From: an uncultured Eubacteriales bacterium
GTDB lineage: Bacteria; Bacillota; Clostridia; Monoglobales; CAYZNM01
NCBI GenBank assembly: GCA_964479875.1
Contig: CAYZNM010000006.1
Location: forward strand, 4,565-68,564
Length of the DNA: 64,000 bases
Reading direction: 5' to 3'
This document shows positions 3,692 to 63,686 of this stretch, one piece after another. Both the position numbers and the translations under genes were made by a program. Numbering within the stretch: position 1 is the first letter of the stretch; each line of letters begins with the position of its first letter. The notes beneath the pieces are model-generated. The model was not told the DNA's origin. It made no database searches and saw only the letters and a program-made list of their open reading frames with translations.

Positions 3692-3773
3692 ATATTAACA
3701 ATAAATTATTGTTAAATCAAACAATTATATTTTGTTTATATGTATTGACAACAAAAATATATTGTTGTATAAT
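3692..3773. promoter_or_regulatory. bidirectional promoter pair with three ACAA-N7-TTGT inverted-repeat operators
   Basis: Leftward promoter: TTGATT (3715-3720, minus) -17- TAATAT (3692-3697). Rightward promoter: TTGACA (3745-3750) -17- TATAAT (3768-3773). Inverted repeats at 3695-3715, 3719-3737 and 3748-3768. Confidence 0.65.
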
Positions 3774-22578: not shown

Positions 22579-23016
22579 GTGAATATTGAATACAAAGAAA
22601 TCAATGCCGAAATGCTTAAAGAAATAAGTGAAAAATTTGACACTGATTGGATTGTAAAGTATACCAAGCTTGGAAGTGAAGAATTTGGTTTGGCAGCTTT
22701 TGATGGCGATGTTCCCGTAGGATATATAATTATTGCTCCGGCAGCGTTGAGATATCCATTGGAGCATTTAAAAGACGCATTTATCCAAATTATTGAAGTC
22801 GATGAGAATTACCAACGCCGCGGAATAGGGCAACATTTAGTTGCACGTTCAGAAGAATGGGCAAAAAAAGCAGGATTCAAGCAAATTCGCACTCATAGCA
22901 ATGACAAGGCAGCGAACGCGATAAGGATGTGGCATAAATTAAACTATGGTTTGTGCCCACATGTTTATTATGCCGAAGAAGGCTGCATGGGATATTGGGT
23001 TGCAAAAGTTTTATAA
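22579..23016 (+). CDS. GNAT-family N-acetyltransferase
   Basis: 145 aa, GTG start after GGAGGG. Acetyl-CoA motif QRRGIGQHLV. AT-rich. Confidence 0.85.
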   Translation: MNIEYKEINAEMLKEISEKFDTDWIVKYTKLGSEEFGLAAFDGDVPVGYIIIAPAALRYPLEHLKDAFIQIIEVDENYQRRGIGQHLVARSEEWAKKAGFKQIRTHSNDKAANAIRMWHKLNYGLCPHVYYAEEGCMGYWVAKVL

Positions 23017-23182: not shown

Positions 23183-23635
23183 ATGGCTAAAAAAATGTGC
23201 TATATAATAAACAAGGATAATTTGAGTTTGCACAAAAAACAGGATAATGCAAGGCTATTATTTAGAAGAGATTTTGAAGAATATGACTTTGATATTAAAA
23301 ATATGTTAGGCTGGTATTATCCTAATTTTTGTTATGCAACAATCATTGATAATAAAATAATATCATGTGCAAGTGCCGGACATCATGCGGACAAAGTTTC
23401 TAATAAGATTATAGATATAAGCACGAAAACGCACGAGGATTACAGGCACAAAGGCTATTCAGTTTCAAATGTAGTTGCGTTGTGCGAGTATATTTTTAGT
23501 ATGCATGAAGAAAAGGAAATACTTTGGATAACTGATATTGATAATATTGCCTCGCAAAAAACTGCATTATCAGCCGGATTTACGAAAGTACCCTTTATAT
23601 ACTATTTGTTCAAAAAATTAAAAGCAAAATTATAA
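23183..23635 (+). CDS. GNAT-family acetyltransferase-like protein
   Basis: 150 aa. HRHKGYSVSNVVALCEYI and NIASQKTALSAGF resemble GNAT motifs A/B. AT-rich. Confidence 0.7.
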   Translation: MAKKMCYIINKDNLSLHKKQDNARLLFRRDFEEYDFDIKNMLGWYYPNFCYATIIDNKIISCASAGHHADKVSNKIIDISTKTHEDYRHKGYSVSNVVALCEYIFSMHEEKEILWITDIDNIASQKTALSAGFTKVPFIYYLFKKLKAKL

Positions 23636-43661: not shown

Positions 43662-43763
43662 TTTACATTACCTCCGTTCAGTTGTGCTGCTATTGTATAT
43701 TTATTATAGCAACCAAAAGTTACATTATGGTGACAAATTGGGTTTTATTGTATTTAAATAAAA

Positions 43764-43795
43764 GCAAAAAGAAGCAGGCAATTGCTGCTTCTTTT
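43764..43795 (-). terminator. terminator after the 900-aa surface protein gene
   Basis: GAAGCAG-gcaattg-CTGCTTC perfect hairpin flanked by A/T runs. Confidence 0.65.
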
Positions 43796-43841
43796 ATGAG
43801 GCAATGAAACTAACTTAGCGAATTTTTAATTCTAGGATAAT

Positions 43842-46544
43842 TTATTTTTGTTGGTTAAGCTTGCGCTTTAGCAGGAATGCGCCTGCGACCGAAACTAGGC
43901 CGGCTAGTGCGTAGAAGGAAGCATTGCTGCTGTCGCCTGTGTAGGGTACAGGCTCGGGTTCGGACTCAAGGCCGCCTAGCGGAATCAGTCCGTCCATGAT
44001 GTCGAACTCTTCAAAGTCGAAATCTTCAAGGGCTGTGCCTTCGGGAAGCTCGAGGTAACCGAGAGGTATGCCGTTTTCGTCAAGCACCATTACCGTGCCG
44101 TCGTCGTTTTGTTGAAGCGTGAGGTCGCGGTTGTTTTGTGTAACGGCGCGTTGCTGTGTGGGCTGCTCGTTTTGTGTTTGTGTTGTTGGGGCTGGGCTTT
44201 CGCTTGGTTGAGCAGGTTCGTTGGTGGGTTCGTCTGTCTGCTCATCTCTCGGTTCGTCTGTCGGCTCTGGTTCATCTGTGGCTTCTGGTTGTTCTGTTAC
44301 AGTAGGACCTACTATTTCAGGTGAAGCAGAGGGCGAAGGAGCAGGACTAGTTGAAGCCGATGGGCTGGGGCTAGGGCTTTCGCTTGCTTCCGTCGAGGGA
44401 GAAGGCGATGGGCTTGGGCTTTCGCTTACTTCAGGGGAAGGCGATGGGCTAGTTGAAGCGGATGGGCTTGGGCTTGTTGATGTTGCAGGCGTTGTATCTA
44501 CGTTTCTAACGTAGAGGAAGTTTATGGTATTGCCGTTTTCTGCAACTGTTACTGTTTGAGCTTCAGCGCCCTGTAATGTGAAGCCTGTTTTGTTTATTGC
44601 GTTTGCCGTGAAGGGCTTGCCTACTTCCTTGCCTGTTCTTGTGAAGTTGTCAACTTGATTCGTTGTGCCTACGGCAGGGTTTGCGTCGATCGTGCGGTAT
44701 GTGTGGATTTCAAGCACGTCGGCCGTAAGTGCTGCAAGCGTTATTACTTTTTCATATACAACCGTTAGCTCTAAGCCCTTTTCAGCAGTGCGCGTTAAGC
44801 TTGTGTCGGTGTTTTTCGCCTTGCTGTTGGTTGTTACGTTTACGAGCTTGTATTCCGCGTCCGCTTTGGAAGTGATTTCAAACTCTTTGCCGTCTGTCAG
44901 GCCTGTAATAGTATCAGTGCTGCCCTTTGCTGTAACCTTATTTCTCGAAACAAGAGCACCTGTGTGGTTGTTTGTTACGTCGTAGAATTCATGGGTTACA
45001 GGAACACTGTATGAAGATATGTTCGTTACCTTGTGGTATTCGATTGTTATTTCTTGGTTCTTGTTGGCAGTTGTTGGGATTGTACCTTGTAATTCATAGC
45101 CATAACTAGTTTTATTTAAAATTGATATGCTTTCGTTATCATTTTTAACTGTTAAGCTATCAGTTGATTTTAGTTCTTCGTTTTCCTCTCTTGCAGTTTC
45201 TGAACCATCTACTTTTGTTACATCATAGTATTTATGATGTACTGTCACAGGGTAAGTGGGTGTTGGGTCGTACACATATCTGATTTCCAACTCGTATCCA
45301 TATTGCGTTTTTGCAAAATCACCAATTGAAGTCGGAAAGGCAGTTACTCTCTTATAAGTTTTCGAGCCATCCACGTATTGTGCGCTGTTGATAACATTCT
45401 TTAAAACCCCATTTTCAAAGTTGCTAAGAGGAATACCATAAAACCCTTGGTTTCCGTTAGGATAGTATCCTTTTTTTACCTCTACGCCATTCTCAACTTC
45501 ATATAAAAAGTGGTCAACGTAAAAGTCGTACTTTGTAGAATTCATTACATACTGTATTGTAAACTCTTCTCCGCCATATACGTAGTAGGAAGAAGAACCG
45601 CTTATTGAACCGCCGTTTTGCAGGTATGAGTATGGCGAGTATGTCTTTCCGTCATTATCGTGCCTTTGGTAGTCCATCGGAGTTATAAATTGATACGGAG
45701 AAGGCCTCTGAGTTTTAAAAGGAACGATTTGCTCAAAAGTACCTTTTTTATTGCCTGGTGTTACTGAACCCTCGTAATACTCATGTGTAATCTTAACTTG
45801 GAATTCGTAATCTTCACAAACGTTATGAACGTATTCGAGGTTGATTACGTTTTGGCTAGTGTCAGATGATACTTGATGTTTAGTTATTGAGGTTTTTAAT
45901 ACAAAGGGTTCATCACAGTCGTGGCTTTTGCTTATTGCAGTTGGGGTGAAATCACTTCCTACTTCCTGATCCTCGAAAGTTTCAGGTACTGTTTCGGTTG
46001 AAACAACCGGATTCTTGTTGCTGCCGCTTCCTGTTCCGAATGTGTTTACAACTTTGTAAATGTGATTTACAGTAACGGTGGAGGTAGATGGAATTGCAGC
46101 CGCAAACGGAGTCATGCCTAGAGCAGCCATGCCCATTTCAGGAAGGTCCTCTTCTGCTTCTTCTTCATCGTCTGCTTCAAGGGATTCTTTTTCGTCGGCT
46201 ACCTCGTCTGATCCTTTTTCTGTTTCTTCTTCGATTACTTGATGGTTGCTTTTATCGTCAGATTCGTTGTCGATTACTTCTTCCTCTTCGTCGGAGAGTT
46301 CTTCATCTACTTTCTCTTCTTCGTTGGCTTCTTCATTGGTTGTGTCATCTTCCGATTCTTCGGTTTCATCAATGGTTGTATCGTCAATTGTGTCGTCAGC
46401 CGCATCTTCAGCCTTGTCGATTATTTGCAAAGCGGCAGATTCTTCGTCAACTTCGTCGGCGAAAACTACGCTGTTTATCGGCATGAATGCTGACAGCACG
46501 CAAACAGATAGGAGAATCGCTAAGTACCTTTTTAAGTTTTTCAT
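43842..46544 (-). CDS. large cell-surface adhesin-like protein with acidic N-terminal region, repeated beta domains, PS-rich linker and VPYTGD sortase-type anchor
   Basis: 900 aa. Signal MKNLKRYLAILLSVCVLSAFMPINSVVFA. A D/E-rich segment. At least 5 repeats beginning V.V.H.YY-like (VNHIYKV, ITHEYYEG, VHHKYYDV, VTHEFYDV, EIHTYRT). C-terminus ...PEPVPYTGDSSNASFYALAGLVSVAGAFLLKRKLNQQK. Confidence 0.85.
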   Translation of the reverse strand: MKNLKRYLAILLSVCVLSAFMPINSVVFADEVDEESAALQIIDKAEDAADDTIDDTTIDETEESEDDTTNEEANEEEKVDEELSDEEEEVIDNESDDKSNHQVIEEETEKGSDEVADEKESLEADDEEEAEEDLPEMGMAALGMTPFAAAIPSTSTVTVNHIYKVVNTFGTGSGSNKNPVVSTETVPETFEDQEVGSDFTPTAISKSHDCDEPFVLKTSITKHQVSSDTSQNVINLEYVHNVCEDYEFQVKITHEYYEGSVTPGNKKGTFEQIVPFKTQRPSPYQFITPMDYQRHDNDGKTYSPYSYLQNGGSISGSSSYYVYGGEEFTIQYVMNSTKYDFYVDHFLYEVENGVEVKKGYYPNGNQGFYGIPLSNFENGVLKNVINSAQYVDGSKTYKRVTAFPTSIGDFAKTQYGYELEIRYVYDPTPTYPVTVHHKYYDVTKVDGSETAREENEELKSTDSLTVKNDNESISILNKTSYGYELQGTIPTTANKNQEITIEYHKVTNISSYSVPVTHEFYDVTNNHTGALVSRNKVTAKGSTDTITGLTDGKEFEITSKADAEYKLVNVTTNSKAKNTDTSLTRTAEKGLELTVVYEKVITLAALTADVLEIHTYRTIDANPAVGTTNQVDNFTRTGKEVGKPFTANAINKTGFTLQGAEAQTVTVAENGNTINFLYVRNVDTTPATSTSPSPSASTSPSPSPEVSESPSPSPSPSTEASESPSPSPSASTSPAPSPSASPEIVGPTVTEQPEATDEPEPTDEPRDEQTDEPTNEPAQPSESPAPTTQTQNEQPTQQRAVTQNNRDLTLQQNDDGTVMVLDENGIPLGYLELPEGTALEDFDFEEFDIMDGLIPLGGLESEPEPVPYTGDSSNASFYALAGLVSVAGAFLLKRKLNQQK

Positions 46545-47891: not shown

Positions 47892-48383
47892 CTATTTTAA
47901 ATTCACTCGTTTGCTGTTGCTCGCGTAGCCGTGGCAGATTGCAATAGCAATCGCGTCCGCCGTATCGTCAGGCTTGGGCGTTTCTGCCAATTTCAAAATC
48001 GTCTTCACCATATACTGCACCTGCTTCTTATCCGCCCTGCCATAACCTGTTACGGCTTGCTTAACTTGCAGCGGCGTGTACTCGTACACCGAAAGCCCAT
48101 TGTTCGCACCTGAAAGCAGCAGCACGCCACGCGCCTGCCCTACCATTATCGCAGTTTTCGCGTTGTCGTTGAAGAACAATTCCTCAATCGCCATGCACTC
48201 AGGCTTGTACCGCTCGATGATGTAGCACATGTCTTCGTATATCATTTTAAGGCGCACGTGCATGTCGGTCTTGGGCGGACTTTCGACTATGCCGTACTCG
48301 ATAGGGCGATACTTGCGCCCCTCGTAATCGAGCACGGCAAAGCCTACGGTCGCAAGCCCAGGGTCTACGCCTAGGATTCGCAT
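47892..48383 (-). CDS. ruvC: crossover junction endodeoxyribonuclease RuvC
   Basis: MRILGVDPGLATVGFAVL..., ...DDTADAIAIAICH. Canonical RuvC catalytic residues. Confidence 0.95.
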   Translation of the reverse strand: MRILGVDPGLATVGFAVLDYEGRKYRPIEYGIVESPPKTDMHVRLKMIYEDMCYIIERYKPECMAIEELFFNDNAKTAIMVGQARGVLLLSGANNGLSVYEYTPLQVKQAVTGYGRADKKQVQYMVKTILKLAETPKPDDTADAIAIAICHGYASNSKRVNLK

Positions 48384-49618
48384 TTGCGCACGATGTCCAT
48401 TACGGCGTTGTTCCAGTCGATTATGCGCTGCGGCTCGTACATACAGGTGCTTACGTCCTTTAGTATAAACTCCACAGGCGTGCCGTATTTATTGCAAGCT
48501 TCAATCGTTTTCTTTATGTCGTTTTTCACAAGGTCGATGTCGAAGGTGCTTCCGCTTAAGAATGCGGGGTTCGGCTTGTTGGATACAACGTAAGCGTCGC
48601 CCATTTGGCGCGCTGCGTTGTCAACGTCTGCCCACGGGCTCATTGAGATTTTGCGCACGTTTTTGATTCGCTTGATTATTTCTATTTTCCTATCTAAAGG
48701 CTCACAGCAGCCGTAGTACACATGCCCGAAGTCCGCGTAATAGGGCAGTGCGTACTCTATCTCGAACTCATTGTGCATATCGGGCGACACAGCCGAAAAC
48801 ATCTGCGCCATTCCCGCAACCCACGTATCGGCAGGAGTAGGCTTTTCTTCATTATAATTACCGCTTGGCAAATCATAGCAATGCGCGCCGCTGCAATGCA
48901 CCAAATCAGGTGCGGCAGTTAGTGCGCCAAGCTCAATCAATTGCCGCTTTTGCTCAAACGCCATGTCTGCGAACTTGCGCACTGTCTTATGCACAAATTC
49001 GGGGCGGTCAAGCATATCGTACAGCACAGCAGTAACCGAGCGATACTTCGATATCTCGTCCCACGGAATAAACATAGTTGCAACGCCGCCTATGCGTATC
49101 GGCAGGATATCGCCGAATATATCGTGCAGCATGTCGTGAGTAGCCTTTGTCGCCTGCTCATCGTGATACAAATCGGGCAGCAGCAGCTTTTCGAGCGATT
49201 CCTCGTCGGGCAGCGTATCGTGGTATTCGTGGCTCACAACGTCGTTGCGCGCATCGAAAGTCTTAATGCTCTCATCCACGAAATTAACCTCGTTGCGATT
49301 GCGTATCGCCTTGGTTATCTCAAAGTACGGGCGCACAACCATATCGCCCGAAAAATTGCGCCACTTAAAAATAGTGCGGCGCAGCGAACCCTCGACCCAA
49401 TGCAAGTCCTTGTTCTCGCATTGCAGCACAAGATAATCGCACTTCGCTTCAAGCTCACCCCACGGCAATTGGTCAAGCATAACCATCGGCCGCACAGGCT
49501 TTAACGCATTAATCCGCTTCCACAGCTCAACAATTTCCGCCTGAATCGGCAGCGCGGCAATTTCCGCGACATCAGTCGCAAGCGCGCGCAGTATATCCCT
49601 ATCCTTTTGATTTATCAT
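48371..49618 (-). CDS. hypothetical protein, possibly URO-D-like TIM-barrel family
   Basis: About 415 aa. The ATG at 49618 is preceded by GGGGG (the track uses TTG 49624). The stop overlaps the ruvC start by 13 nt. Family assignment rests on weak recollection only. Confidence 0.6.
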   Translation of the reverse strand: MINQKDRDILRALATDVAEIAALPIQAEIVELWKRINALKPVRPMVMLDQLPWGELEAKCDYLVLQCENKDLHWVEGSLRRTIFKWRNFSGDMVVRPYFEITKAIRNRNEVNFVDESIKTFDARNDVVSHEYHDTLPDEESLEKLLLPDLYHDEQATKATHDMLHDIFGDILPIRIGGVATMFIPWDEISKYRSVTAVLYDMLDRPEFVHKTVRKFADMAFEQKRQLIELGALTAAPDLVHCSGAHCYDLPSGNYNEEKPTPADTWVAGMAQMFSAVSPDMHNEFEIEYALPYYADFGHVYYGCCEPLDRKIEIIKRIKNVRKISMSPWADVDNAARQMGDAYVVSNKPNPAFLSGSTFDIDLVKNDIKKTIEACNKYGTPVEFILKDVSTCMYEPQRIIDWNNAVMDIVRKCES

Positions 49619-49671
49619 AAACAACCCCCATATATAAATATAATTTATTATACCACACTAAAAAATAAAAT

Positions 49672-49768
49672 GCGACTAAAAACTAAAAACTAATGGTGAA
49701 GGGCTGTTGAAGAAACGCGCTTCGCGCGTTTTATTAGTCTTTCACCCTTCACCATTAGTTTTTAGTCG
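49672..49768. repeat. heptamer-armed hairpin enclosing a mini-terminator (second copy of the architecture)
   Basis: Left arm CGACTAAAAACTAAAAACTAATGGTGAAGGGC. Central AAACGCGC-TTCG-GCGCGTTTT (49713-49732). Right arm TCTTTCACCCTTCACCATTAGTTTTTAGTCG. Located in a divergent promoter gap. Confidence 0.75.
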
Positions 49769-49875
49769 TTTTCCAGTTCTATTTTCCATATTATGGCATA
49801 GAATTATATATATCAAGGCTCGGCATGACATTGGTATGAAAGATTAATTAACCTAAGATATAGGAGTGTATAAAT

Positions 49876-50538
49876 ATGTTGCAAGATTTAGGGACAAATA
49901 ATAAAGTTGAGGTTGCGGGAACAGTTACAAGTGAGATGACCTTTAACCATGAAGTGTACGGCGAATCGTTTTTCTCTTTCATGCTAAAGGTGCCTCGCCT
50001 GAGCGATGTTTCGGATTATATAATGGTTACGGCGAGCGAGCGTCTGCTTATGGGGCAGGAGTATAAAATCGGAAGCCTGCTCTACATCACAGGGCAGTAT
50101 CGTTCCTACAACAATTTCGCGCCGGAAGGCAACAAGCTTATACTCACAGTATTCGCAAAAGACATACTTCCGCTCACCGAGCTTTCGGAAAAAAGCGTAA
50201 ACAACATTTACTTAAACGGTTTCGTATGCAAAGAGCCTGTATATCGCACAACGCCGCTGAATCGTGAAATCGCGGACATACTGCTTGCTGTTAACCGCAC
50301 ATACAAAAAATCTGATTACATCCCATGTATAGCCTGGGGCAGAAACGCGCGCTATGTAGGCAAGCTGAATGTAGGCGACAACCTAGTGATATGGGGCAGA
50401 GTGCAAAGCCGCGACTATCAAAAGAAGGGCGATGATGAATCCATCACCTTAAAGACCGCCTACGAAGTAAGTATATCAAAATTAGAACTAGGCAAAATAA
50501 TAATCCCATCGTACGAAGAGGGCATGGAGTATAACTAA
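49876..50538 (+). CDS. tandem double-OB-fold protein, SSB-like
   Basis: 220 aa. The two halves align with each other (VEVAGTVTSEMTF...ITGQYRSYN and IYLNGFVCKEPVY...IWGRVQSRDY), a typical OB/SSB pattern. No acidic C-terminal tail. Confidence 0.55.
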   Translation: MLQDLGTNNKVEVAGTVTSEMTFNHEVYGESFFSFMLKVPRLSDVSDYIMVTASERLLMGQEYKIGSLLYITGQYRSYNNFAPEGNKLILTVFAKDILPLTELSEKSVNNIYLNGFVCKEPVYRTTPLNREIADILLAVNRTYKKSDYIPCIAWGRNARYVGKLNVGDNLVIWGRVQSRDYQKKGDDESITLKTAYEVSISKLELGKIIIPSYEEGMEYN

Positions 50539-50736
50539 AAAGTATTATTTTACTTTTTTGGAATCATTTGTAACTATTGCATTAAATTTTTCTTTAGAAT
50601 AAGTCACATTGCATATATTTCCAGTATATAAAAGCTGTTACGACAAAGAATATAAACACGATACAGCGTATCGTATATGCAATGTACGATATGGTGTATC
50701 TGGATAATATCAAATTATACAAAGGAGAGATACATC

Positions 50737-50955
50737 GTGGCATCTAATAATTACGGAAGCAACAGAGTTTTAGTACCTGAGGCTAAGGAAGCATTAAACA
50801 AGTTCAAAATGGAGGCAGCTTCTGAAGTAGGCGTTAACCTAAAGAACGGCTACAACGGCGACTTAACTTCCAGACAAGCAGGCAGCGTTGGCGGTCAAAT
50901 GGTTAAGAAAATGATCCAACAAGCCGAGAGCAAGTTAATGCAAAACCAATTTTAA
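50737..50955 (+). CDS. alpha/beta-type small acid-soluble spore protein
   Basis: GTG at 50737 after AAAGGAGAG. ...VLVPEAKEALNKFKMEAASEVGVNL...GDLTSRQAGSVGGQMVKKMI is the SASP signature. Confidence 0.92.
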   Translation: MASNNYGSNRVLVPEAKEALNKFKMEAASEVGVNLKNGYNGDLTSRQAGSVGGQMVKKMIQQAESKLMQNQF

Positions 50956-51074
50956 GTATATATAAAGCGTGAGCTTTATAGCATATAGCGTACACACGCG
51001 AAAGGACGCCGGAATAACTCCGGCTCCTTTGTTGTATAATCGTATTGGCGTAAATTTACATAAGGACTATAAAA

Positions 51075-51782
51075 ATGAAACGGTTTATGAGAAGAGTGCT
51101 GCCGCGTATGCGCTATGGTATGCGCAGCAGGAATGGGAAGCTGCGTGCGGTTATTGTAGTTGCCGCTGTGTTTATTTTATTGTTGTGGCTGTTTAATACA
51201 GTGACAAGCAGGCTTATTCCGATTGCCGCTTCCCTTGCCGAATCCGAGGCGCAGGAGATAATCAACCTTTCGGTAAATCAAGCACTTGCCGAAAAAATAC
51301 TCGACGGACAGCTGGACTACAACAAATTCTACACCATAGCCAAGGATGACAAAGGCAACATCACAGGCGTGGTCGCAAACGTAGTCCAGCTTAATATTTT
51401 AAAGGCGCAGCTTGTTGAAGCGATACAAAATAAAATGAGCAACATCACGGCAGACGACATTTACATACCAATAGGCAGTTTGTTTAATAATGAAATATTC
51501 TCTAACAGAGGCTTCAAGATACCGATTAAGCTATTGGCTGTCGGTTCTATTAATGTTGATTTTTCGGACAGCTTCTCTGACGCGGGAATAAATCAGACAA
51601 AGCATGAAATTCAGCTGGATTTAATAAGCAGCGTGACGATGTTGTTCCCGATAGGGAGCATTACGACGAACATTACGACGTCGCTGCCGCTTGCGCAGAC
51701 GATTATCGTGGGGACTGTGCCACAGTCGTACACGACGATAAATTTGGGGGAGGGTTTGAAGGAGGTGCTGGATGAGCTGTAG
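51075..51782 (+). CDS. yunB: sporulation protein YunB
   Basis: 235 aa. N-terminal TM, then AESEAQEIINLSVNQALAEKI...VVQLNILKAQLVEAIQ... resembles YunB. Confidence 0.65.
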   Translation: MKRFMRRVLPRMRYGMRSRNGKLRAVIVVAAVFILLLWLFNTVTSRLIPIAASLAESEAQEIINLSVNQALAEKILDGQLDYNKFYTIAKDDKGNITGVVANVVQLNILKAQLVEAIQNKMSNITADDIYIPIGSLFNNEIFSNRGFKIPIKLLAVGSINVDFSDSFSDAGINQTKHEIQLDLISSVTMLFPIGSITTNITTSLPLAQTIIVGTVPQSYTTINLGEGLKEVLDEL

Positions 51783-51818
51783 GAACTATGCGTATAGGGT
51801 TATGAGCAGCCAGATTAT

Positions 51819-52694
51819 TTATTCAAAATCTATTTGTACTTCGTACCAATAATTTTGTTCTGTTAAATAATCATTATTCCTGCTTTCAACTATATGTAGT
51901 TTCCATGAAATAAGTATCAAAACAAACATAATGAGTATAATTGCATTAGTGAATATAAATGGCTTTAGCTTTGGTTCATCAGCTTTCCTTACCAACCTAT
52001 CTATGTAGTAAAATAAGCCAAAAAGCATATTGATAATAACAAAACCTATCAATAATACAATAAAGGCCACTCGATAAATAGATGATTGATGAAAATTTTC
52101 AAGCACCGAAGTTGAAAAAGCTATACCGGCAGTAAATGCTAATACAACAGCAGCAAAAATCCCCAGAATAGCAATATACTCTTTTTGTGAGCTTCTTAAT
52201 TTATCGTCCACACCTTTAATATCTTGCTTAAGCTTTCGCGCCTCACTATTGAATGAATTAATTTGAGACTTTACATCGTCCAAACTATCATCCTTCAAAA
52301 GCTCCCTTTCCACCTTGTCCCAATATGTTAATCTTGCCAATTCAAGGCTTACATGGTCATATAACTTCTTTAGGTTATCACTTATATCTATCAATTCCCC
52401 ATTAGTTTCTTTATTCAATGGTCGATAACCACTTATAATTAGTAATAGATTTTGTCCAAGAATATCTGTATTACCAATCTTATCTCCTTGCTTGATGTCG
52501 GTCAATACAACAAATATATCGGAATAGAAATGCCGAAACTCTTTATTCTTATCTTTGGAATAATATAGATTTTCTAGTCTTCGATAAAAAGATGCACGAT
52601 CGCTTTTATTCGATAGTGCATCTTGGGTCTCACTTAACTCATATAAAATTTTCTTTAATTCTTCTCTATGCTTTTGTTCGTCATTCCACAGCAT
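51819..52694 (-). CDS. uncharacterised 291-aa protein: helical/coiled-coil N-terminal region plus 3 C-terminal TM helices (candidate toxin/effector partner of the Panacea-domain gene)
   Basis: Very AT-rich ORF starting 5 nt after the DUF4065 gene stop. TM segments YIAILGIFAAVVLAFTAGIAF, IYRVAFIVLLIGFVIINMLFGLFYYI and FIFTNAIILIMFVLILISW. No recognised catalytic motif. Confidence 0.75.
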   Translation of the reverse strand: MLWNDEQKHREELKKILYELSETQDALSNKSDRASFYRRLENLYYSKDKNKEFRHFYSDIFVVLTDIKQGDKIGNTDILGQNLLLIISGYRPLNKETNGELIDISDNLKKLYDHVSLELARLTYWDKVERELLKDDSLDDVKSQINSFNSEARKLKQDIKGVDDKLRSSQKEYIAILGIFAAVVLAFTAGIAFSTSVLENFHQSSIYRVAFIVLLIGFVIINMLFGLFYYIDRLVRKADEPKLKPFIFTNAIILIMFVLILISWKLHIVESRNNDYLTEQNYWYEVQIDFE

Positions 52695-52699
52695 AAAAA

Positions 52700-53113
52700 T
52701 TACCCCAATTTTTTTATTAAATACAGAGGAATTACTCCGTGGTTTCCACGACCTTCATCGTAAATTTTAGCCCATGCACCATTTTGTTTATGAGTATCCT
52801 TCACCATATCCCATGGATTTAATTCTCGTTTTTCCTCTATAATACAATCTATGCGATTATCTAAAATTTGAACGTTATCATACTTTGTAGAAATAGGCAT
52901 AGCTCCGTGACCAGAGAAATGATAATATACATTCGGTACAACCGGACCAAACTGCCATGCTTCGATGTCATCAGAAAAGGCCTGTTCATTTCGCTCTAAG
53001 AAATCCTTTTGTATATAATACAAAATCTTCTGAAGTTGCAAGTTGCTAATTGGGCAACCATCGTTATAACACTTTGTTACTATATACTTAGATAATTCAA
53101 GTGCAGAATACAT
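52700..53113 (-). CDS. Panacea (DUF4065, SocA/GepA-like) domain protein, putative antitoxin
   Basis: MYSALELSKYIV...NLQLQKILYYIQKDFLERNEQAFSDDIEAWQFGPVVPNVYYHF matches the DUF4065 core (LQKLLYY.Q....f.d.ieAW.yGPVv..vY). GGAGGG RBS 6 nt before the ATG at 53113. Confidence 0.8.
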   Translation of the reverse strand: MYSALELSKYIVTKCYNDGCPISNLQLQKILYYIQKDFLERNEQAFSDDIEAWQFGPVVPNVYYHFSGHGAMPISTKYDNVQILDNRIDCIIEEKRELNPWDMVKDTHKQNGAWAKIYDEGRGNHGVIPLYLIKKLG

Positions 53114-53155
53114 ACATTGCCCTCCATTCGTTTCAAGTTTTATTACCACAGTTCT

Positions 53156-53184
53156 ATTATATTCTATTTATTTGATTTTGTCAA
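53156..53184 (-). promoter_or_regulatory. consensus sigma-A promoter of the DUF4065 two-gene module
   Basis: On the minus strand: TTGACA (53179-53184) -17- TATAAT (53156-53161). Confidence 0.6.
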
Positions 53185-53196
53185 CAAAAAAATAAA

Positions 53197-53239
53197 CACA
53201 AATAAAACCTAATACTTGCTAATAGGTTTTATTTGTGTT
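53197..53239 (-). terminator. long perfect hairpin terminator after tRNA-Arg
   Basis: ACACAAATAAAACCTA-loop-TAGGTTTTATTTGTGT, followed on the minus strand by TTTATTTTTTT. Confidence 0.7.
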
Positions 53240-53249
53240 ACAATATCTT

Positions 53250-53325
53250 TGGCGTGCCTGGCAGGATTTGAACCTGCGACCTACTGATTCGTAGTCAGTC
53301 ACTCTATCCGCTGAGCTACAAGCAC
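53250..53325 (-). tRNA. tRNA-Arg (anticodon ACG), CCA encoded
   Basis: Minus strand GTGCTTGTAGCTCAGCGGATAGAGTGACTGACTACGAATCAGTAGGTCGCAGGTTCAAATCCTGCCAGGCACGCCA. It folds as a cloverleaf: acceptor GTGCTTG/CAGGCAC, anticodon loop CTACGAA, T-arm GCAGG-TTCAAAT-CCTGC. Confidence 0.92.
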
Positions 53326-53361
53326 TTATTCGATTTTTGCCGCTTTTCTGTCGGCTTTTAT

Positions 53362-53390
53362 ATAATAGCATACTTTTAAATAAAATGCAA
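53362..53390 (-). promoter_or_regulatory. predicted promoter of tRNA-Arg
   Basis: On the minus strand: TTGCAT (53385-53390) -17- TATTAT (53362-53367). Confidence 0.5.
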
Positions 53391-53410
53391 GTGTTTTTTT
53401 AAAAAAATTT

Positions 53411-53431
53411 GCAGCGGGATTATCCCGCTGC
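53411..53431 (-). terminator. terminator after the glycoside hydrolase gene
   Basis: GCAGCGGGAT-T-ATCCCGCTGC hairpin with AAATTTTTTT on the minus strand. Confidence 0.7.
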
Positions 53432-53445
53432 TTTGGGCGTTTTTG

Positions 53446-55326
53446 TTACTTTTGCTTAGGGAAGCGGATTTCTTCCAGCCAATCGGGCTTGTCGTAGGTT
53501 TCGGTGGTGTCCGTCCACTCGTTGAAGTTGCGGATTGTGGATACTGCCATGTAGACCATTAGTGCGCCCCAGTGGTAGAATTTGTCGCTTGCGCTTTCGG
53601 CTGTGATGGCGTTGTAGTTTTCGCCTACTGCGCCGTGCTCTTTCCAACACTTGATGAAGAGATTGTAGCCGCGGCGTACTACCTCGCGCCATATATCCAT
53701 GCGACCTGTGCGCATTATGCCTTCGGCTGCGATGAAGTTGGTGGGTGCCCATATGCGTCCGCGCCAGTAGTCTTGCTCGGGGAAGGTTGCGTCGCAGCGC
53801 GCTATGTTGGGGATTACATAGTCGCCCCAGAATTCGTTTTCGTTTAAGAGGTGGTCGTTGATTAGGTGGTTTTCGCGTTCCTTGTCAGCTATGCCTGCGG
53901 TTAGGGCGTAGAAGTGGGTGAGGGATAGGGTGGGGTCGAACTCGCCGTTCCAGTGCTTGTTCATGTAGCACTTTACGCTGTCGTCCCATAGCTCGCGGTT
54001 GATTTTTTCGGCTAGGGTTACGCGGCGGGATTCTAGCTCCTTGCGTTCGTCCTCTTTGCCTAGGAGTGTCGCCATTTTTTCCAGGATTTCGCAGTCCATT
54101 ACCATTAGGCAGTTTAAGCCTGCGTAGGATAATTCTAGGCAGTGCAGCTTTTCGTTGAAGACTGCTCTGTCCCACATCGGCGAGTTGTCTATGCCGCTTT
54201 CCCATTGTGCGCCTATGCGCGCGGCGCATTCGTCGCAGTTCCACGCTTCGTCGGTGGGTTCAAATTCCCACGGGGTGGAGGCAAGCTCCAACAGGCCGTC
54301 GCCATTGAAGTCGCGCTCGCGGAAGCGCCAGCGATTCCACTCGAGTAAGCCGTTGAAACATTCTTCGATAAACCATTTGTCGCCGTATTGTAGGTACAGC
54401 TTCCACGCAACCATTGCGCCGACTTGGGGCTCGCTGCGGTCGCGGCTTGGGCCTCTGCCGCCGCCTAGGTTGGGAATCATACCTTCGGGGGTTACCTCTT
54501 CCATGATGGAGAAGAATGTGGAGTAGGCGTGGTTTTTGTCGAGCAGGCCGTATTGCAGTGCAGCAAAGAATGTGTCCCAGCCGAATAATACATAGTCGCC
54601 GAAGCCGGAGGGGCGTTTGCACCAGTTGCGGCTTACGGGGGTGACAACTCTGTCGTTGGTGAAGTCGTAGACTTTGTTCCACAGCAGACTGCGGCGCATT
54701 GCAGACAACGCCTCGCCTAGGTCGCCTTTGGCAGTGATTGTGCTTTCGAGCCACTTCTCACGCGAATCCACTAGCATTTTGTCGATTTCGACTTCGTTCG
54801 CGCTGCTGTTGACTGTAAAGTAAACTGCCTTGTCAGCAGCTCCGTACACATGCGGTGCAGTTACAGGATTCCACGTAGGCTTATCGCAACCATTCACTAC
54901 GCGTAAAGTAAATTGCTTGTCACCTGTTTTTGCCACCGCATTGTCGCCCTCATACGAAAACGACATCTTTCGCGAGAACAGTTCCCCTGCTTCAAGTGCA
55001 ACGCACATGCCAAACCTTGCTTTAATAGGCGTAACCTTCATGCAGAGCGAATCCTTGCAGGCAGTCGCTTCCACCTTGTACTCACCGCCTTCAATTGATA
55101 CAATAACCTCGCTGTAGCTGCCGTCCAGCGAATGCTCGCCGAATGTTACAACCTCGTCCCAGCCTATGTTGTAGCAGTACCTGTTAAGGTGCGGCACGAA
55201 AAAGCTTAGGTTGACCCTAAGCCGTTCGGGCATTAGCACATGCGCAGTCACCGACTGCGAATCCCATGTGTTCCACCCTTGTGCGATTTCATCATAAAGC
55301 TGCTTTGAACGCTTTGAAATTACCAT
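53446..55326 (-). CDS. six-hairpin (alpha/alpha)6 glycoside hydrolase, GH63/GH37-like (MGH1/trehalase-like)
   Basis: 626 aa. C-terminal catalytic-domain motifs (GWDTFF, EFWGDYVIPN, QDYWRGRIWAPTNF) resemble the GH63/trehalase-like clan. Substrate unknown. Confidence 0.7.
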   Translation of the reverse strand: MVISKRSKQLYDEIAQGWNTWDSQSVTAHVLMPERLRVNLSFFVPHLNRYCYNIGWDEVVTFGEHSLDGSYSEVIVSIEGGEYKVEATACKDSLCMKVTPIKARFGMCVALEAGELFSRKMSFSYEGDNAVAKTGDKQFTLRVVNGCDKPTWNPVTAPHVYGAADKAVYFTVNSSANEVEIDKMLVDSREKWLESTITAKGDLGEALSAMRRSLLWNKVYDFTNDRVVTPVSRNWCKRPSGFGDYVLFGWDTFFAALQYGLLDKNHAYSTFFSIMEEVTPEGMIPNLGGGRGPSRDRSEPQVGAMVAWKLYLQYGDKWFIEECFNGLLEWNRWRFRERDFNGDGLLELASTPWEFEPTDEAWNCDECAARIGAQWESGIDNSPMWDRAVFNEKLHCLELSYAGLNCLMVMDCEILEKMATLLGKEDERKELESRRVTLAEKINRELWDDSVKCYMNKHWNGEFDPTLSLTHFYALTAGIADKERENHLINDHLLNENEFWGDYVIPNIARCDATFPEQDYWRGRIWAPTNFIAAEGIMRTGRMDIWREVVRRGYNLFIKCWKEHGAVGENYNAITAESASDKFYHWGALMVYMAVSTIRNFNEWTDTTETYDKPDWLEEIRFPKQK

Positions 55327-55336
55327 AGTATCCTCT

Positions 55337-56650
55337 TTAGTTTTTTATTTTATCCGCAAGTAAGTTTGCGTAGGATTTTATTGTGTCTTGGTCTTCCCCT
55401 TCTATCATTATGCGAATTAGTGGTTCTGTGCCAGATTTTCGGATTAGCAGCCTGCCGTTTCCGTCTAGGATTTCTTCTATGCGCTTTATCTCGTCTACGA
55501 CTTCGGGGGCGGATAGGCGGCTTTCGTCTACGTCGCGGACGTTTACTAGGATTTGTGGGTAGACTGTCATTATTTTTGCCATGTGGCTTACTTTTTTGCC
55601 GCGGGCAATTTCGGCTATGCAGAGGGCGGTTAGTGTGCCGTCGCCTGTTACAGAGAAGTGCGGCAGGATTATGTGGCCGGATTGCTCACCGCCTACGGAA
55701 TAGCCGCCTTGCTGCATTTCTTGCAGGACGTATTTGTCGCCGACAGGGGTTTTCAGTATGTTGATTCCCATCTTTTCGGCGGCTTTGAACATGCCTAGGT
55801 TGCTCATAACTGTGGCTACGATTGTGTTGTGGTTAAGCTTGCCTTGTTTCTTTAGGTCGTCGGCGATAATCAGCATGATTTTGTCGCCGTCGACTATTTC
55901 GCCGTTTTCGTCTACGCATAGTGCGCGGTCGCAGTCGCCGTCGAATGCGAAGCCCATGTCGTAACCACCGCTTTTCACAAGCTCACACAAGCCGCCCATA
56001 TGCGTAGAGCCGCAGTCTTTGTTTATATTTGCACCGTCGGGAGTTGTGTTAATACAGGTTATGTCCGCGCCCAGACGCTTGAATACAGCAGGGGCAATGG
56101 CATATGCTGCGCCGTTTGCGCAATCCAGCGCAATGCGCATACCTTCAAGGCTGCCGCTTGCGCATTCGCAGAGGAAGTCGAGGTAAGGGCTTATGTCCAC
56201 GTCCTTGCAATGCCCTATGTCGAAGGGGGAAGCAAGCGGAACTTCGCTTATGTTATCTATGTAGTATTCTATCTCTTCTTCTATATCGTCGCTTAACTTG
56301 TTGCCGCTTTTGTTGAAAAACTTAATGCCGTTTTGTTCACATGGATTATGGGACGCAGATATTACAACTCCTGCTTCCGCTTGGTGTAGCCGCGTCAAGA
56401 ATGATACGGCAGGCGTAGGTACAACTCCCGCGTACAATATGTCTGCGCCGACAGAGAGTATCCCTGCCGCCATTGCCGATTGCAGCATATCGCAGGATAG
56501 CCGCGTGTCCTTGCCTATCACCAACTTGGATTTATCATAATGCTTCGTGAGTACATACGCGCCTGCTACGCCTAATCTATATGCAAGCTCTGCTGTGAGG
56601 TTTTGGTTGGCGATACCTCTAACGCCGTCTGTTCCAAAATACTTGCCCAT
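55337..56650 (-). CDS. glmM: phosphoglucosamine mutase
   Basis: MGKYFGTDGVRG..., active site ISASHNP, FDGDCDR. Canonical GlmM downstream of cdaA-cdaR. Confidence 0.97.
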   Translation of the reverse strand: MGKYFGTDGVRGIANQNLTAELAYRLGVAGAYVLTKHYDKSKLVIGKDTRLSCDMLQSAMAAGILSVGADILYAGVVPTPAVSFLTRLHQAEAGVVISASHNPCEQNGIKFFNKSGNKLSDDIEEEIEYYIDNISEVPLASPFDIGHCKDVDISPYLDFLCECASGSLEGMRIALDCANGAAYAIAPAVFKRLGADITCINTTPDGANINKDCGSTHMGGLCELVKSGGYDMGFAFDGDCDRALCVDENGEIVDGDKIMLIIADDLKKQGKLNHNTIVATVMSNLGMFKAAEKMGINILKTPVGDKYVLQEMQQGGYSVGGEQSGHIILPHFSVTGDGTLTALCIAEIARGKKVSHMAKIMTVYPQILVNVRDVDESRLSAPEVVDEIKRIEEILDGNGRLLIRKSGTEPLIRIMIEGEDQDTIKSYANLLADKIKN

Positions 56651-56712
56651 GTTTTTCCTCCTATTTAAAAGGACGCGTGGATAGCGCGCCCCTGCTATTT
56701 TTGTTGTATTGC

Positions 56713-57729
56713 CTAATCGTAAATCCTTTGCATTTGAATTGTTACATTTTCCCAGTCGCCTTGCTCTGTCGTTACATTTTCAGGCAGATCTAGGGGGGTG
56801 TTGAAGGTTGCGCCCTCTAGGTATGTGTTGGCTTCTATCTTCTTGGTGCTTACCTTGGTGATGGAATCGATTAACGCTTTTGGCCCTAGGATTGTCACCT
56901 CTTGGTTGCCTAAAATAATCGGGTTGTATGAGAACGACAGTGTTTCAGATGTTTCAACAATCTCGCCGTCTATTTCTTCTTCGGTCGTTTTGAAGTCCTT
57001 GCCTTGCTTGGGCGAATAGACTATCTCAATCGGCACTTTTTTCTTTTTAAGCACCTGATACTTTATCTCGACGCTTTCTATGCCTGATTGAATCATGCCC
57101 TTGTCAACCTCGGCTCCGCTTGCGTTTATGAAGTCAATCTCGGCTTTTTCAACTATGTCGTCAACTTTGTTGCCTATATCTACTGTGATTACGGCGTGGT
57201 CAATTGCGTCGACGTATGATTGGGGGCCTTCGACTTTGACTTGGCTTTCGGATTGAGTTTTCTCGCCGATGATGTATTCGCTTCCTAGCTCGCCTTCGGT
57301 TTTAACCTCTATTGGCAGGGTTTTTGTCACCTTTGTTTCAAGCTCAAGCGTGAATGAGCCTGGGCTTATCGCAGTCACGGCTATGTCAGGGCTGCTTGGA
57401 ACAAGTATCGCGCCTACCTTTAGGTCGTATATTCCCGGGGCGTTGCATACTGCAAGGTCAACGTTCGCACGTATGTCGTCCGCGATAATGCGATGTACCT
57501 TGTTGCGGCTGCCTTTAATCGTTATGTCAGTGGAGAGATTCTCATCCTTGCGAATTATCACTAAGTTGCGGTTGGTGATTTCAAGCGTGTTGGTGTAGTA
57601 AACATGCACGCCTCGGATAACTCGCTCCGTTTCGGGGTCGAGTATGATGGAGAGGTAGAACCATAAGCCTATCGCAAGCACTACAGACAGTATCTTTATC
57701 CCTAAATCATCTAAGAAATATTTCTTCAT
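56713..57729 (-). CDS. cdaR: CdaR (YbbR-domain) regulator of diadenylate cyclase
   Basis: 338 aa with an N-terminal TM and repeated YbbR-like beta domains. Overlaps the cdaA stop by 4 nt. Confidence 0.85.
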   Translation of the reverse strand: MKKYFLDDLGIKILSVVLAIGLWFYLSIILDPETERVIRGVHVYYTNTLEITNRNLVIIRKDENLSTDITIKGSRNKVHRIIADDIRANVDLAVCNAPGIYDLKVGAILVPSSPDIAVTAISPGSFTLELETKVTKTLPIEVKTEGELGSEYIIGEKTQSESQVKVEGPQSYVDAIDHAVITVDIGNKVDDIVEKAEIDFINASGAEVDKGMIQSGIESVEIKYQVLKKKKVPIEIVYSPKQGKDFKTTEEEIDGEIVETSETLSFSYNPIILGNQEVTILGPKALIDSITKVSTKKIEANTYLEGATFNTPLDLPENVTTEQGDWENVTIQMQRIYD

Positions 57730-58601
57730 GCTTGCTCACTCTTTCCGCTTTTCTTCTGCCTTGGGCGGCGTACGTGCTTTTTTTCGACAGGCTTCAACAT
57801 TTGATATATGCGTTTGTAGAGTACGTCGGGCGTGAGGTGGCGCGTGAGATTGCCGTCTAGGGCTATGGAGATTGTGCCTGTTTCCTCCGATGTGATTATG
57901 CAGATACAGTCCGCACTTTCGCTCATCCCGATAGCGGCACGGTGACGCGTACCCAATTGGCTGTCAAGCTGATTATTCTGCGTGAGGGGGAGTATGCAGG
58001 CGGCTGCCTTAATGCGCAAGTCCTGCACAACAACAGCTCCGTCATGCAGCGGCGTATCCTTGATGAATATGTTAAGCAGCAGCTCCTTGCTTATGCAAGC
58101 GTCGGTGAGTATACCTGTGGAGGCTATGTCGTCAAGCTTAGTCCTGCGCTCGATTATGATTAGGCAGCCTAGCTTTTCGCGCGACAATTCCGCAACAGCG
58201 TCGGCGATAGCGCGGCAGTTATGCTGCACTTCCTCATCCTTCACCTTTACCTCGGTAAAGTTTACTATTCCGCCGATTTTGCTCCTGCCCATCTGTTCAA
58301 GCGCGCGCCTAAACTCAGGCTGGAACAGCACGATGACCGCGATAAGCCCAACCTGCACAGCATTAATCAATATGTAGTTCACCATTATAAGCTTGAACCA
58401 CTCGCTCACGAATAAAAGCAGCAAAATAATGACTATGCCCTTGAGCAGCTGCGCCGCACGCGATTTCTTTACAAACCTTATCAGCTGAAAGATAACGTAC
58501 GCCACAATAGCAATATCAAGATAGTCAGCCAGACGCATATACAGCAGGGTGGTAGCAATATTGCTCATGAATATGTCAATTAGCTCCAATATATCACCCA
58601 C
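57726..58601 (-). CDS. cdaA: diadenylate cyclase CdaA
   Basis: 291 aa. 3 N-terminal TM helices plus a DAC domain (GALIIIER-like GCLIIIERR, DGAVVV, RHRAAIG). Confidence 0.95.
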   Translation of the reverse strand: MGDILELIDIFMSNIATTLLYMRLADYLDIAIVAYVIFQLIRFVKKSRAAQLLKGIVIILLLLFVSEWFKLIMVNYILINAVQVGLIAVIVLFQPEFRRALEQMGRSKIGGIVNFTEVKVKDEEVQHNCRAIADAVAELSREKLGCLIIIERRTKLDDIASTGILTDACISKELLLNIFIKDTPLHDGAVVVQDLRIKAAACILPLTQNNQLDSQLGTRHRAAIGMSESADCICIITSEETGTISIALDGNLTRHLTPDVLYKRIYQMLKPVEKKHVRRPRQKKSGKSEQA

Positions 58602-63529: not shown

Positions 63530-63686
63530 TTGACCTCCGTTTCGTTTGATGTTGCTGTAATGTGATATATTATACCATAAATGTTGTAATTTGTCAACGT
63601 ATGTTCTGTTTTGTCGCATTGTGATTCACATGTTGATGGGTTTTATCGCACGAAAAAAGCCACACGTTTGTGCGGCTTGGGTGGTG

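Follow-up and report, generated by a model that had tools for sequence, protein, structure and literature searches.

Two adjacent genes in the 64-kb stretch of DNA that we analysed (hereafter the window) most probably constitute a type II PanA-PanT toxin-antitoxin cassette of the T4 family, acquired horizontally and placed in the interval between a tRNA-Arg terminator and yunB (estimated probability about 0.8). An earlier sequence-only reading had likewise proposed a PanA-PanT-type pair, and this proposal has held up as the best account of what was observed here: sequence homology, domain architecture, strict linkage of the two genes, foreign base composition and a matching promoter. Toxicity, neutralisation and membrane depolarisation are known from the literature, for another member of the family.

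Layout and composition of the locus

The cassette lies between the terminator of tRNA-Arg(ACG) and yunB, with which it is convergent. Its features and those of its upstream border are as follows.

53250..53325, minus strand: tRNA-Arg(ACG), found by ARAGORN and by Rfam RF00005 (68.7 bits)
53195..53239, minus strand: tRNA terminator hairpin, with 20-nt arms, a 5-nt loop and then a U-run (inverted repeat 95% complementary)
53156..53184, minus strand: putative promoter of the panA-panT operon, TTGACA-17-TATAAT (12/12 match in a promoter scan)
52700..53113, minus strand: panA (gene 1), putative antitoxin of 137 aa, matching PF13274
51819..52694, minus strand: panT (gene 2), candidate T4-type membrane toxin of 291 aa, homologous to T4 members

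The tRNA, the hairpin, the promoter element and the coordinates of both genes had been read from the sequence beforehand, and all were reproduced here. The tRNA-Arg(ACG) gene belongs to the host; it bounds the islet on the upstream side and lies outside the cassette. With its flanks (53185-53250) the hairpin folds at -21.9 kcal/mol (z = -6.57; 0 of 200 shuffled sequences were as stable); it is the intrinsic terminator of the tRNA gene and shields the cassette from tRNA read-through. The perfect TTGACA-17-TATAAT element, of which the 64-kb window holds 3 copies against 0.04 expected, probably serves as the cassette's own promoter of the sigma-70/sigma-A type. While the longest reading frame of gene 1 begins at a GTG at 53149, an ATG preceded at 6 nt by GGAGGG gives a protein of 137 aa, which is also the length reported by the gene callers for public contigs. 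The panT gene starts 5 nt past the panA stop codon.

GC content is 0.30-0.35 over positions 51800-53400 compared to 0.43-0.57 in the flanks, and the GC3 values of genes 1 and 2 (0.29 and 0.27) are about 3 sd under the mean of the 52 long ORFs in the window (0.56, sd 0.10). An att search and repeat scan found no direct repeat of the tRNA 3' end, and the ORF list and Pfam showed no integrase among the neighbouring genes, so that the proposed picture of an AT-rich islet with neither integrase nor att duplication proved accurate. The locus carries a compositional signature only, lacking the integrase and the tRNA 3' repeat at the far border that define a tRNA-integrated genomic island. Based on the GC3 offset, the presence of the pair on 71 viral contigs and the fact that the best non-self homologue of gene 2 (54% identity) comes from other taxa, we conclude that the pair is a compositionally foreign islet acquired horizontally. 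A database search for relatives of the host, intended for an empty-site comparison, returned a nearest non-self YunB homologue that was only 37% identical, so that the databases offered no near relative in which to compare the yunB-tRNA-Arg interval. Adjacency to a tRNA was rejected as a trait of the family: a tRNA was present within 1.5 kb at about 12 of 150 homologous loci, which by a rough estimate is near the chance level.

Relationship of the two proteins to known families

In profile HMM searches, gene 1 matched SocA_Panacea (PF13274; E 2.7e-14; 54.5 bits with a cut-off of 25.7) over profile positions 1-112 of 113, in keeping with its earlier assignment to DUF4065/Panacea, and it also matched phrog_1281 (E 9.6e-31). 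A further match was to NCBIfam NF047745 SocA_antitoxin (E 1.8e-20), at about 73 bits (73.4) and thus under the 190-bit equivalog cut-off. By its sequence, gene 1 is a stand-alone Panacea (DUF4065/SocA-like) protein and a putative antitoxin.

The AF2 model of gene 2 (mean pLDDT 77) comprises a helical domain (residues 1-133), a linker (134-144) and a coiled-coil stalk continuous with TM1 (141-200); the N-terminal ~133 residues have pLDDT values of 81-93, and the coiled coil itself covers ~141-175 before running into TM1. The model and hydropathy place the transmembrane helices at ~176-200 (TM1), 206-235 (TM2) and 244-265 (TM3), followed by an acidic C-tail, and hydropathy and positive-inside analysis predict an N-in/C-out topology. 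A cytoplasmic helical region followed by three TM helices was therefore correctly anticipated by the sequence-only reading, but of the ~175 residues that it described as charged helical/coiled-coil sequence, residues ~1-133 are more than that and form a conserved and confidently modelled helical domain. Across 135 non-identical homologues, six residues (R54, Y57, K110, D113, H114 and L117) and the TM1 motif YI.ILGIFA..F..G..FS.SVL.N are 85-100% conserved. Gene 2 holds every one of these family-wide residues, and its TM1 carries the near-invariant motif. Together with the three-part architecture, the conserved residues could guide mutagenesis of T4 toxins.

Searches of Pfam, NCBIfam and PADLOC with gene 2 gave no significant family (only sub-threshold TM and coiled-coil noise), and no catalytic or toxin domain was found in Pfam; neither gene matched any PADLOC-DB v2 family at E <= 1, which leaves a defence role unsupported by these models. 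A Foldseek search of the PDB with the AF2 model returned nothing at E < 1, and sequence-profile matches in the PDB, to a RecA-concatemer and a GCN4 coiled coil, were discarded as spurious. BFVD yielded a single match (E 1e-4), an unnamed viral protein that is about as long as gene 2 and is probably homologous to it, and gene 2 also matched phrog_5763 (PHROG 5763) with an E-value of 5.7e-28.

Sequence alignments linked gene 2 to two putative toxins, WP_125126329.1 (51% identity, E 3e-92, residues 1-259) and the Helicobacter mesocricetorum partner of WP_104721381.1 (32% identity, E 2e-31, nearly full length). Dataset S1 of Kurata et al. (2022, PNAS; PMC8832971) assigns both the WP_125126329.1/WP_125126330.1 pair and the WP_104721381.1 pair to T4. 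By exact look-up, one of our homologous loci (L026) contains WP_125126329.1 and WP_125126330.1, and another (L080) contains WP_104721381.1; a third T4 entry is matched by the pair in a Mu-like prophage of H. rodentium ATCC 700285, which has the same -20 nt overlap as that entry in the list. The suggestion that gene 2 might represent an undescribed toxin family is contradicted by these two T4 matches and by PHROG 5763. Gene 2 is a divergent member of the known PanT cluster T4, with putative toxicity and, at most, a possible role in phage defence. Its link to the validated toxin WP_095295403.1 runs via the T4 clustering in that paper and via alignments to other Helicobacter/Campylobacter members. 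T4 accessions were absent from the NetFlax supplements, and searching the literature for follow-up studies of the PanT T4 family turned up nothing beyond two papers from the Hauryliuk/Atkinson labs. The discovery value is small, because both the antitoxin domain and its partner toxin family were on record before and one T4 member is characterised; the analysis assigns a putative function to two 'hypothetical' genes of a poorly sampled, deep-branching spore-former.

Homologues of gene 2 were found at 150 loci, 79 in genomes and 71 on IMG/VR viral contigs. The expected co-occurrence with Panacea genes was evident, as a gene 1 homologue lies directly upstream on the same strand at about 145 of these loci, usually with a gap of 0-8 nt or an overlap of up to ~20 nt, and nine out of nine diverse upstream genes pass PF13274. 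The loci are spread across several phyla, and their distribution is patchy and phage-linked. With more than 1,000 clusters at 90% identity, the T4 family emerges as very large, almost always Panacea-linked and frequent in Firmicutes of the gut and in the prophages they carry. At five genome loci (L058, L062, L064, L065 and L066) panT is split into two ORFs beside an intact panA, which fits counter-selection of a toxic gene or, alternatively, MAG assembly errors.

Comparison with characterised toxin-antitoxin pairs

The T4 representative PanT(Hel. sp.), from Helicobacter sp. 13S00482-2, is toxic in E. coli and neutralised by its PanA. Like gene 2, it combines a coiled coil in its N-terminal part with TM helices at the C-terminus, and it strongly depolarises the E. 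coli membrane with neither pore formation nor SYTOX Green permeabilisation (PMC8832971). Besides PanT(Hel. sp.), the 2022 study tested a single T4 member, WP_074138355.1 from a C. difficile VL_0167 prophage, and scored it as 'not Toxic' in E. coli (PMC8832971).

PanA-PanT(Hel. sp.) (WP_095295401.1/WP_095295403.1) belongs to the same T4 cluster as gene 2 via the accessions of two other members. It shares with the window pair the antitoxin-then-toxin order, tight spacing, a stand-alone Panacea antitoxin ('noNTD') and a toxin whose helical/coiled-coil N-terminal region is followed by TM helices at the C-terminus, and the motifs RH.Y, K.LYDH..L and ILGIFA are found in both gene 2 and its Helicobacter homologues. 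However, gene 2 is only ~30% identical to the Helicobacter branch and is longer (291 aa versus ~233-260 aa), its N-domain and C-tail both being extended; its gene is separated from panA by a 5-nt gap rather than joined by an 11-nt overlap, and its host is a deep-branching spore-forming Firmicute rather than a Helicobacter. The T4 pair WP_125126330.1/WP_125126329.1 of Schaedlerella arabinosiphila DSM 106076 has the same domain order and belongs to the same Clostridia-type subfamily as the window pair; its PanA gene is 4 nt upstream of the putative toxin gene, and its genomic site differs. Within this subfamily gene 2 is an outlier, with no relative above 54% identity.

Two other kinds of PanT, PanT(Bar. 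api.)/PanT D11 (T12) and PanT(Esc. col.) (T3), are similar to T4 in targeting the membrane and in being neutralised by a Panacea-only antitoxin, but they are unrelated to gene 2 in sequence and much smaller. They also form large pores (SYTOX-positive), whereas the T4 toxin depolarises without permeabilisation (PMC8832971). The toxFtsL(D9):PanA pair of Gelidibacter mesophilus (PMC10440598) resembles the window pair in having a large (281-aa), helical, TM-anchored toxin and a stand-alone Panacea protein, which in this case neutralises its toxin directly. Its toxin differs from gene 2 in its FtsL-like/GAF fold and single TM region, and it causes delayed lysis as opposed to rapid depolarisation; we detected no sequence similarity between toxFtsL(D9) and gene 2.

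Proposed mode of action and alternative explanations

The mode of action and biological role that we infer for the pair are as follows. The strong, constitutive-looking promoter would produce a bicistronic panA-panT mRNA, on which panA would be translated from a good Shine-Dalgarno sequence and panT would probably be translationally coupled to it, because only 5 nt separate its start from the panA stop. PanT would insert its three TM helices into the bilayer of the cytoplasmic membrane, while its first ~175 residues (helical domain and stalk) would project into the cytoplasm. Unrestrained PanT would dissipate the membrane potential, probably via an oligomeric ion-conducting assembly lined by TM1 rather than a large pore, and this loss would shut down transcription, translation and replication together. 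PanA may bind PanT directly, most likely at the conserved N-domain or the stalk, and thereby keep it inactive. Stable PanA:PanT complexes were pulled down for five pairs other than the T4 pair (PMC8832971), two other pairs combine a TM toxin with a stand-alone Panacea protein that neutralises it directly (Ernits et al., 2023; PMC10440598), and in the case of PanT D11 the Panacea protein contacts a cytoplasmic segment ahead of the TM region (PMC10440598). PanT would be released after loss or inactivation of PanA, perhaps upon loss of the element or in response to a phage cue.

We suggest only tentatively, and regard as rather doubtful, that domain 1-133 of the Clostridia-type T4 PanT proteins is a regulatory or sensor module gating a three-TM ion-conducting effector, which would make the pair a phage-triggered Abi system borne by prophages and islands and not a mere addiction module. 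This domain carries the motifs RH.YSDIF and K.LYDH..L..AR and has no match among solved structures (Foldseek versus PDB). If this holds, the most widespread PanAT family of gut Firmicutes would have both a new fold for a membrane effector and a testable mechanism of triggering.

We consider it improbable that the genes form a non-classical, prophage-derived module that acts in superinfection exclusion, in Abi or as a holin/antiholin-like switch, in which the Panacea protein would detect some phage cue and the membrane protein would do no harm before being triggered. The 71 viral-contig loci, the PHROG family and the Mu-like Helicobacter prophage are consistent with such a module, as are the T4 member that was non-toxic in E. 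coli (PMC8832971) and the sensory role for Panacea favoured by Ernits et al. (2023; PMC10440598). However, PanT(Hel. sp.) is toxic alone and rescued by PanA, which is classical toxin-antitoxin behaviour (PMC8832971), neither window protein has a PADLOC match, and the pair has no phage genes beside it in the 64-kb window. This explanation also overlaps with the PanA-PanT cassette rather than excluding it, because a toxin-antitoxin pair can be an Abi system.

It is very unlikely that the pair works as a type VI system like SocA-SocB of Caulobacter crescentus, with the Panacea protein as a proteolytic adaptor that delivers the toxin to ClpXP for constant degradation. SocA, the founding Panacea protein (PMC8832971), shares the Panacea domain with gene 1, and gene 1 is partially similar to NF047745, but the score of that match falls far under the equivalog cut-off. 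SocA works as an adaptor for ClpXP, and its toxin SocB is soluble and inhibits the replication clamp, whereas the partner here is a three-TM membrane protein unrelated to SocB, and both ClpXP and Lon were dispensable for PanA in neutralisation assays (Kurata et al., 2022; PMC8832971). Finally, although gene 2 has no catalytic or toxin Pfam domain and the islet no integrase or att site, the notion that gene 2 is an ordinary host housekeeping membrane protein with an incidental Panacea neighbour is in effect ruled out by how regularly the genes are linked (a Panacea gene directly upstream at about 145 of 150 loci, in several phyla and on viral contigs), and it also conflicts with a composition ~3 sd from that of the host, a patchy, phage-linked distribution and the validated toxicity of a T4 member (PMC8832971).

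Layout and composition of the locus

The cassette lies between the terminator of tRNA-Arg(ACG) and the convergent yunB gene, and consists of gene 1 (panA, a putative Panacea antitoxin) and gene 2 (panT, a candidate membrane toxin). All of the elements described in the sequence-only reading, namely the tRNA, the terminator, the promoter and the two genes, were reproduced, at these window coordinates:

53250-53325 (-), tRNA-Arg(ACG), single, found by ARAGORN and Rfam
53195-53239 (-), terminator inverted repeat with 20-nt arms, then a U-run, directly 3' of the tRNA
53184->53156 (-), perfect TTGACA-17-TATAAT, ten bases downstream of the terminator repeat
53113->52700 (-), gene 1, 137 aa, ATG 6 nt after GGAGGG
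52694->51819 (-), gene 2, 291 aa, start 5 nt past the gene 1 stop

The hairpin (-21.9 kcal/mol, z = -6.6 against shuffles) is a textbook intrinsic terminator. Three perfect TTGACA-17-TATAAT sites occur in the 64-kb window, compared with 0.04 expected; the remaining two are at 3745-3773(+) and 63569-63597(-). The longest mechanical ORF of gene 1 begins at a GTG at 53149, and public gene calls take the ATG. A distance of 36 nt separates the end of gene 2 from the yunB stop codon. The surroundings (48371-58601) are those of a spore-former, with YunB, an alpha/beta SASP and an SSB-family protein with OB folds on one side and, past the tRNA, a GH63/MGH1-like hydrolase, GlmM, YbbR and CdaA on the other. 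As first read, the locus has no att duplication or integrase: a search showed that the tRNA 3' end is not duplicated, and none of the neighbours is an integrase gene.

The pair had also been described as an AT-rich islet, and this agrees with its GC content (0.30-0.35, against 0.43-0.57 in the flanks) and with the GC3 of gene 1 (0.29) and gene 2 (0.27), set against a window mean of 0.56 (sd 0.10, 52 long ORFs). Both genes are compositional outliers. Because the host is a deep-branching lineage, whose nearest non-self YunB relative is just 37% identical, insertion is inferable from composition only. The locus was found only in one 159.5-kb NCBI contig and three Logan contigs (SRR10912415, SRR10912416 and SRR10912418). 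Also foreign by composition are two adjacent small GNAT acetyltransferase genes, 22579-23016(+) and 23183-23635(+), with GC of 0.39 and 0.30 and GC3 of 0.32 and 0.29, which form a second islet of this kind in the window. A third low-GC outlier among genes of ~50% GC is a 202-aa ORF at 7990-8598(-) (GC 0.36, GC3 0.31), for which a Pfam search gave no match. Large ORFs of 589 and 900 aa at 41892-46544(-) have lower GC3 (0.41-0.46); the 900-aa protein, with a Pro/acidic repetitive region and a sub-threshold terminal LPXTG-like cell-wall anchor (19.5 bits, cut-off 20), is probably a surface adhesin.

Domains of the two proteins

Profile searches confirmed the Panacea core originally proposed for gene 1 and showed that the domain stands alone: the protein matched PF13274 (SocA_Panacea, DUF4065) over nearly the whole model (E 2.7e-14, 54.5 bits, cut-off 25.7) and phrog_1281 at E 1e-30. 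It is not SocA itself, because its 73 bits against the NCBIfam SocA equivalog fall below the 190-bit cut-off. A sequence search found no related solved structure.

Gene 2 gave nothing significant against Pfam, NCBIfam or PADLOC, and matched PHROG 5763 (function unknown) at E 5.7e-28. An AlphaFold2 model built with 20 homologues (mean pLDDT 77) contains the following parts:

Residues 1-133, compact all-helical N-terminal domain, block pLDDT 81-93
Residues 134-144, low-confidence linker
Residues 141-200, single long helix, a cytoplasmic stalk continuous with TM1
Residues 206-235, TM2
Residues 244-265, TM3
C-terminus, acidic helix

The three hydrophobic segments agree between a Kyte-Doolittle profile and the model, so the TM helices of the sequence-only reading stand; its '175 aa of coiled coil' has to be corrected, since a conserved, globular helical domain takes up most of this stretch. 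The charges (five K/R in the 233-247 loop; six D/E and one K/R in the C-tail) fit a predicted N-in/C-out topology. Foldseek found no PDB match to the model at E < 1.

Among 135 non-identical homologues, 16-51% identical to the window protein, R54, Y57, K110, D113, H114, L117, S205, R208 and a TM1 stretch, Y173-I174-x-ILGIFA-x5-F-x2-G-x2-FS-x-SVL-x-N, are 85-100% conserved. The window protein has every one of these positions.

Relation to toxin cluster T4

The name 'Panacea' for DUF4065 comes from Kurata et al. (2022; PNAS 119:e2102212119, PMC8832971), who also drew up a catalogue of the toxins paired with it. PanT of Helicobacter sp. 13S00482-2 (WP_095295403.1), validated there as a toxin, has an N-terminal coiled-coil-like region and C-terminal TM helices and belongs to cluster T4 of Dataset S1, which has many members in Clostridia, Tissierellia, Negativicutes, Erysipelotrichia, Fusobacteria and Campylobacterales (PMC8832971). 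Exact-sequence look-up identified the toxin WP_125126329.1 and PanA WP_125126330.1 at locus L026 of our collection of gene 2 homologues (Schaedlerella arabinosiphila DSM 106076), and PanA WP_104721381.1 at L080 (Helicobacter mesocricetorum); all three are T4 entries (Dataset S1, PMC8832971). Over nearly its full length, gene 2 is 51% identical to WP_125126329.1 (E 3e-92) and 32% identical to the L080 toxin (E 2e-31). Our sole match in the GenBank phage collection, a Mu-like prophage whose pair overlaps by exactly 20 nt, corresponds to a third entry of T4, that of Helicobacter rodentium ATCC 700285, for which a -20 nt overlap is given (PMC8832971). Homology to the validated WP_095295403.1 would follow from the paper's clustering. 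The suggestion of an undescribed toxin family is thus contradicted by homology to listed T4 members, and the PanA-PanT toxin-antitoxin reading is supported: the pair adds a rather divergent new member to a family that is already catalogued and in part characterised by experiment. What novelty remains lies in the N-terminal domain of gene 2 and in the trigger and role of a module very widespread in gut Firmicutes and prophages.

Homologues of gene 2 formed 1,047 90%-identity clusters in a 5.8-billion-protein database, mostly from gut Clostridia (for example Mediterraneibacter, Eubacterium, Lachnospiraceae and Oscillospiraceae), the best non-self match being just 54% identical. We called ORFs in 79 genome and 71 IMG/VR viral loci with relatives and searched them with profiles of both genes. 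The expected co-occurrence with Panacea genes was found: a gene 1 homologue lay immediately upstream on the same strand in ~145 of the 150, usually 0-8 nt away or overlapping by up to ~20 nt, and nine of nine phylogenetically spread upstream genes passed PF13274. Lying next to a tRNA was not a general feature of the family. The exceptions to linkage were:

L029 and L122, toxin genes at contig ends
L004, Panacea remnant
L076 (189-1380), toxin homologue without the conserved N-terminal ~50 residues, no Panacea gene upstream
L115 (4674-6570), IMG/VR contig, toxin variant with a different N-domain

The L076 toxin, whose start is overlapped by an unrelated 147-aa ORF, looks decayed and orphaned. 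The L115 toxin joins an unrelated domain at its N-terminus to the stalk and 3-TM module, which keeps the ILGIFA motif; the upstream 263-aa protein has no Pfam match and resembles Panacea only faintly (E 0.0016 against the gene 1 profile). L115 may thus carry a relative of the T4 pair that arose by domain swapping. Five genome loci (L058, L062, L064, L065 from Butyrivibrio fibrisolvens 16/4, and L066) have the toxin gene broken into two ORFs, the upstream Panacea gene being intact in four and shortened to 98 aa in L066. These splits could be toxin pseudogenes, a hint that a toxic gene is selected against, or could reflect assembly or frameshift error. The Helicobacter branch (L081, proteins P0177-P0286) turns up very frequently in H. 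pylori genomes and comprises dozens of 90%-identity clusters; its many shorter forms (213-230 aa) suggest frequent truncation.

Proposed action and role

In E. coli the T4 representative indiscriminately inhibited transcription, translation and replication and strongly depolarised the cells (DiSC3(5)) with no uptake of SYTOX Green, and growth was rescued by its cognate PanA (PMC8832971). A second T4 member tested in E. coli, from the C. difficile VL_0167 prophage, was scored 'not Toxic' (PMC8832971). By homology, the window PanT would be a membrane-inserted, potential-dissipating toxin, and its near-invariant TM1 may line an oligomeric ion path.

Five PanAT pairs other than the T4 pair co-purified, and ClpXP and Lon were not required for neutralisation by PanA in that paper's assays (PMC8832971); two other TM toxins are directly neutralised by stand-alone Panacea proteins through contacts with the cytoplasmic part that precedes the TM region (PMC10440598). 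PanA may likewise bind the cytoplasmic N-domain or stalk of PanT and so keep the toxin inactive. Given the strong promoter and the 5-nt gap, panA and panT are probably co-expressed with translational coupling. PADLOC models matched neither cassette protein. The role could be mobile-element addiction or abortive infection, and the abundance of the family in prophages is compatible with both.
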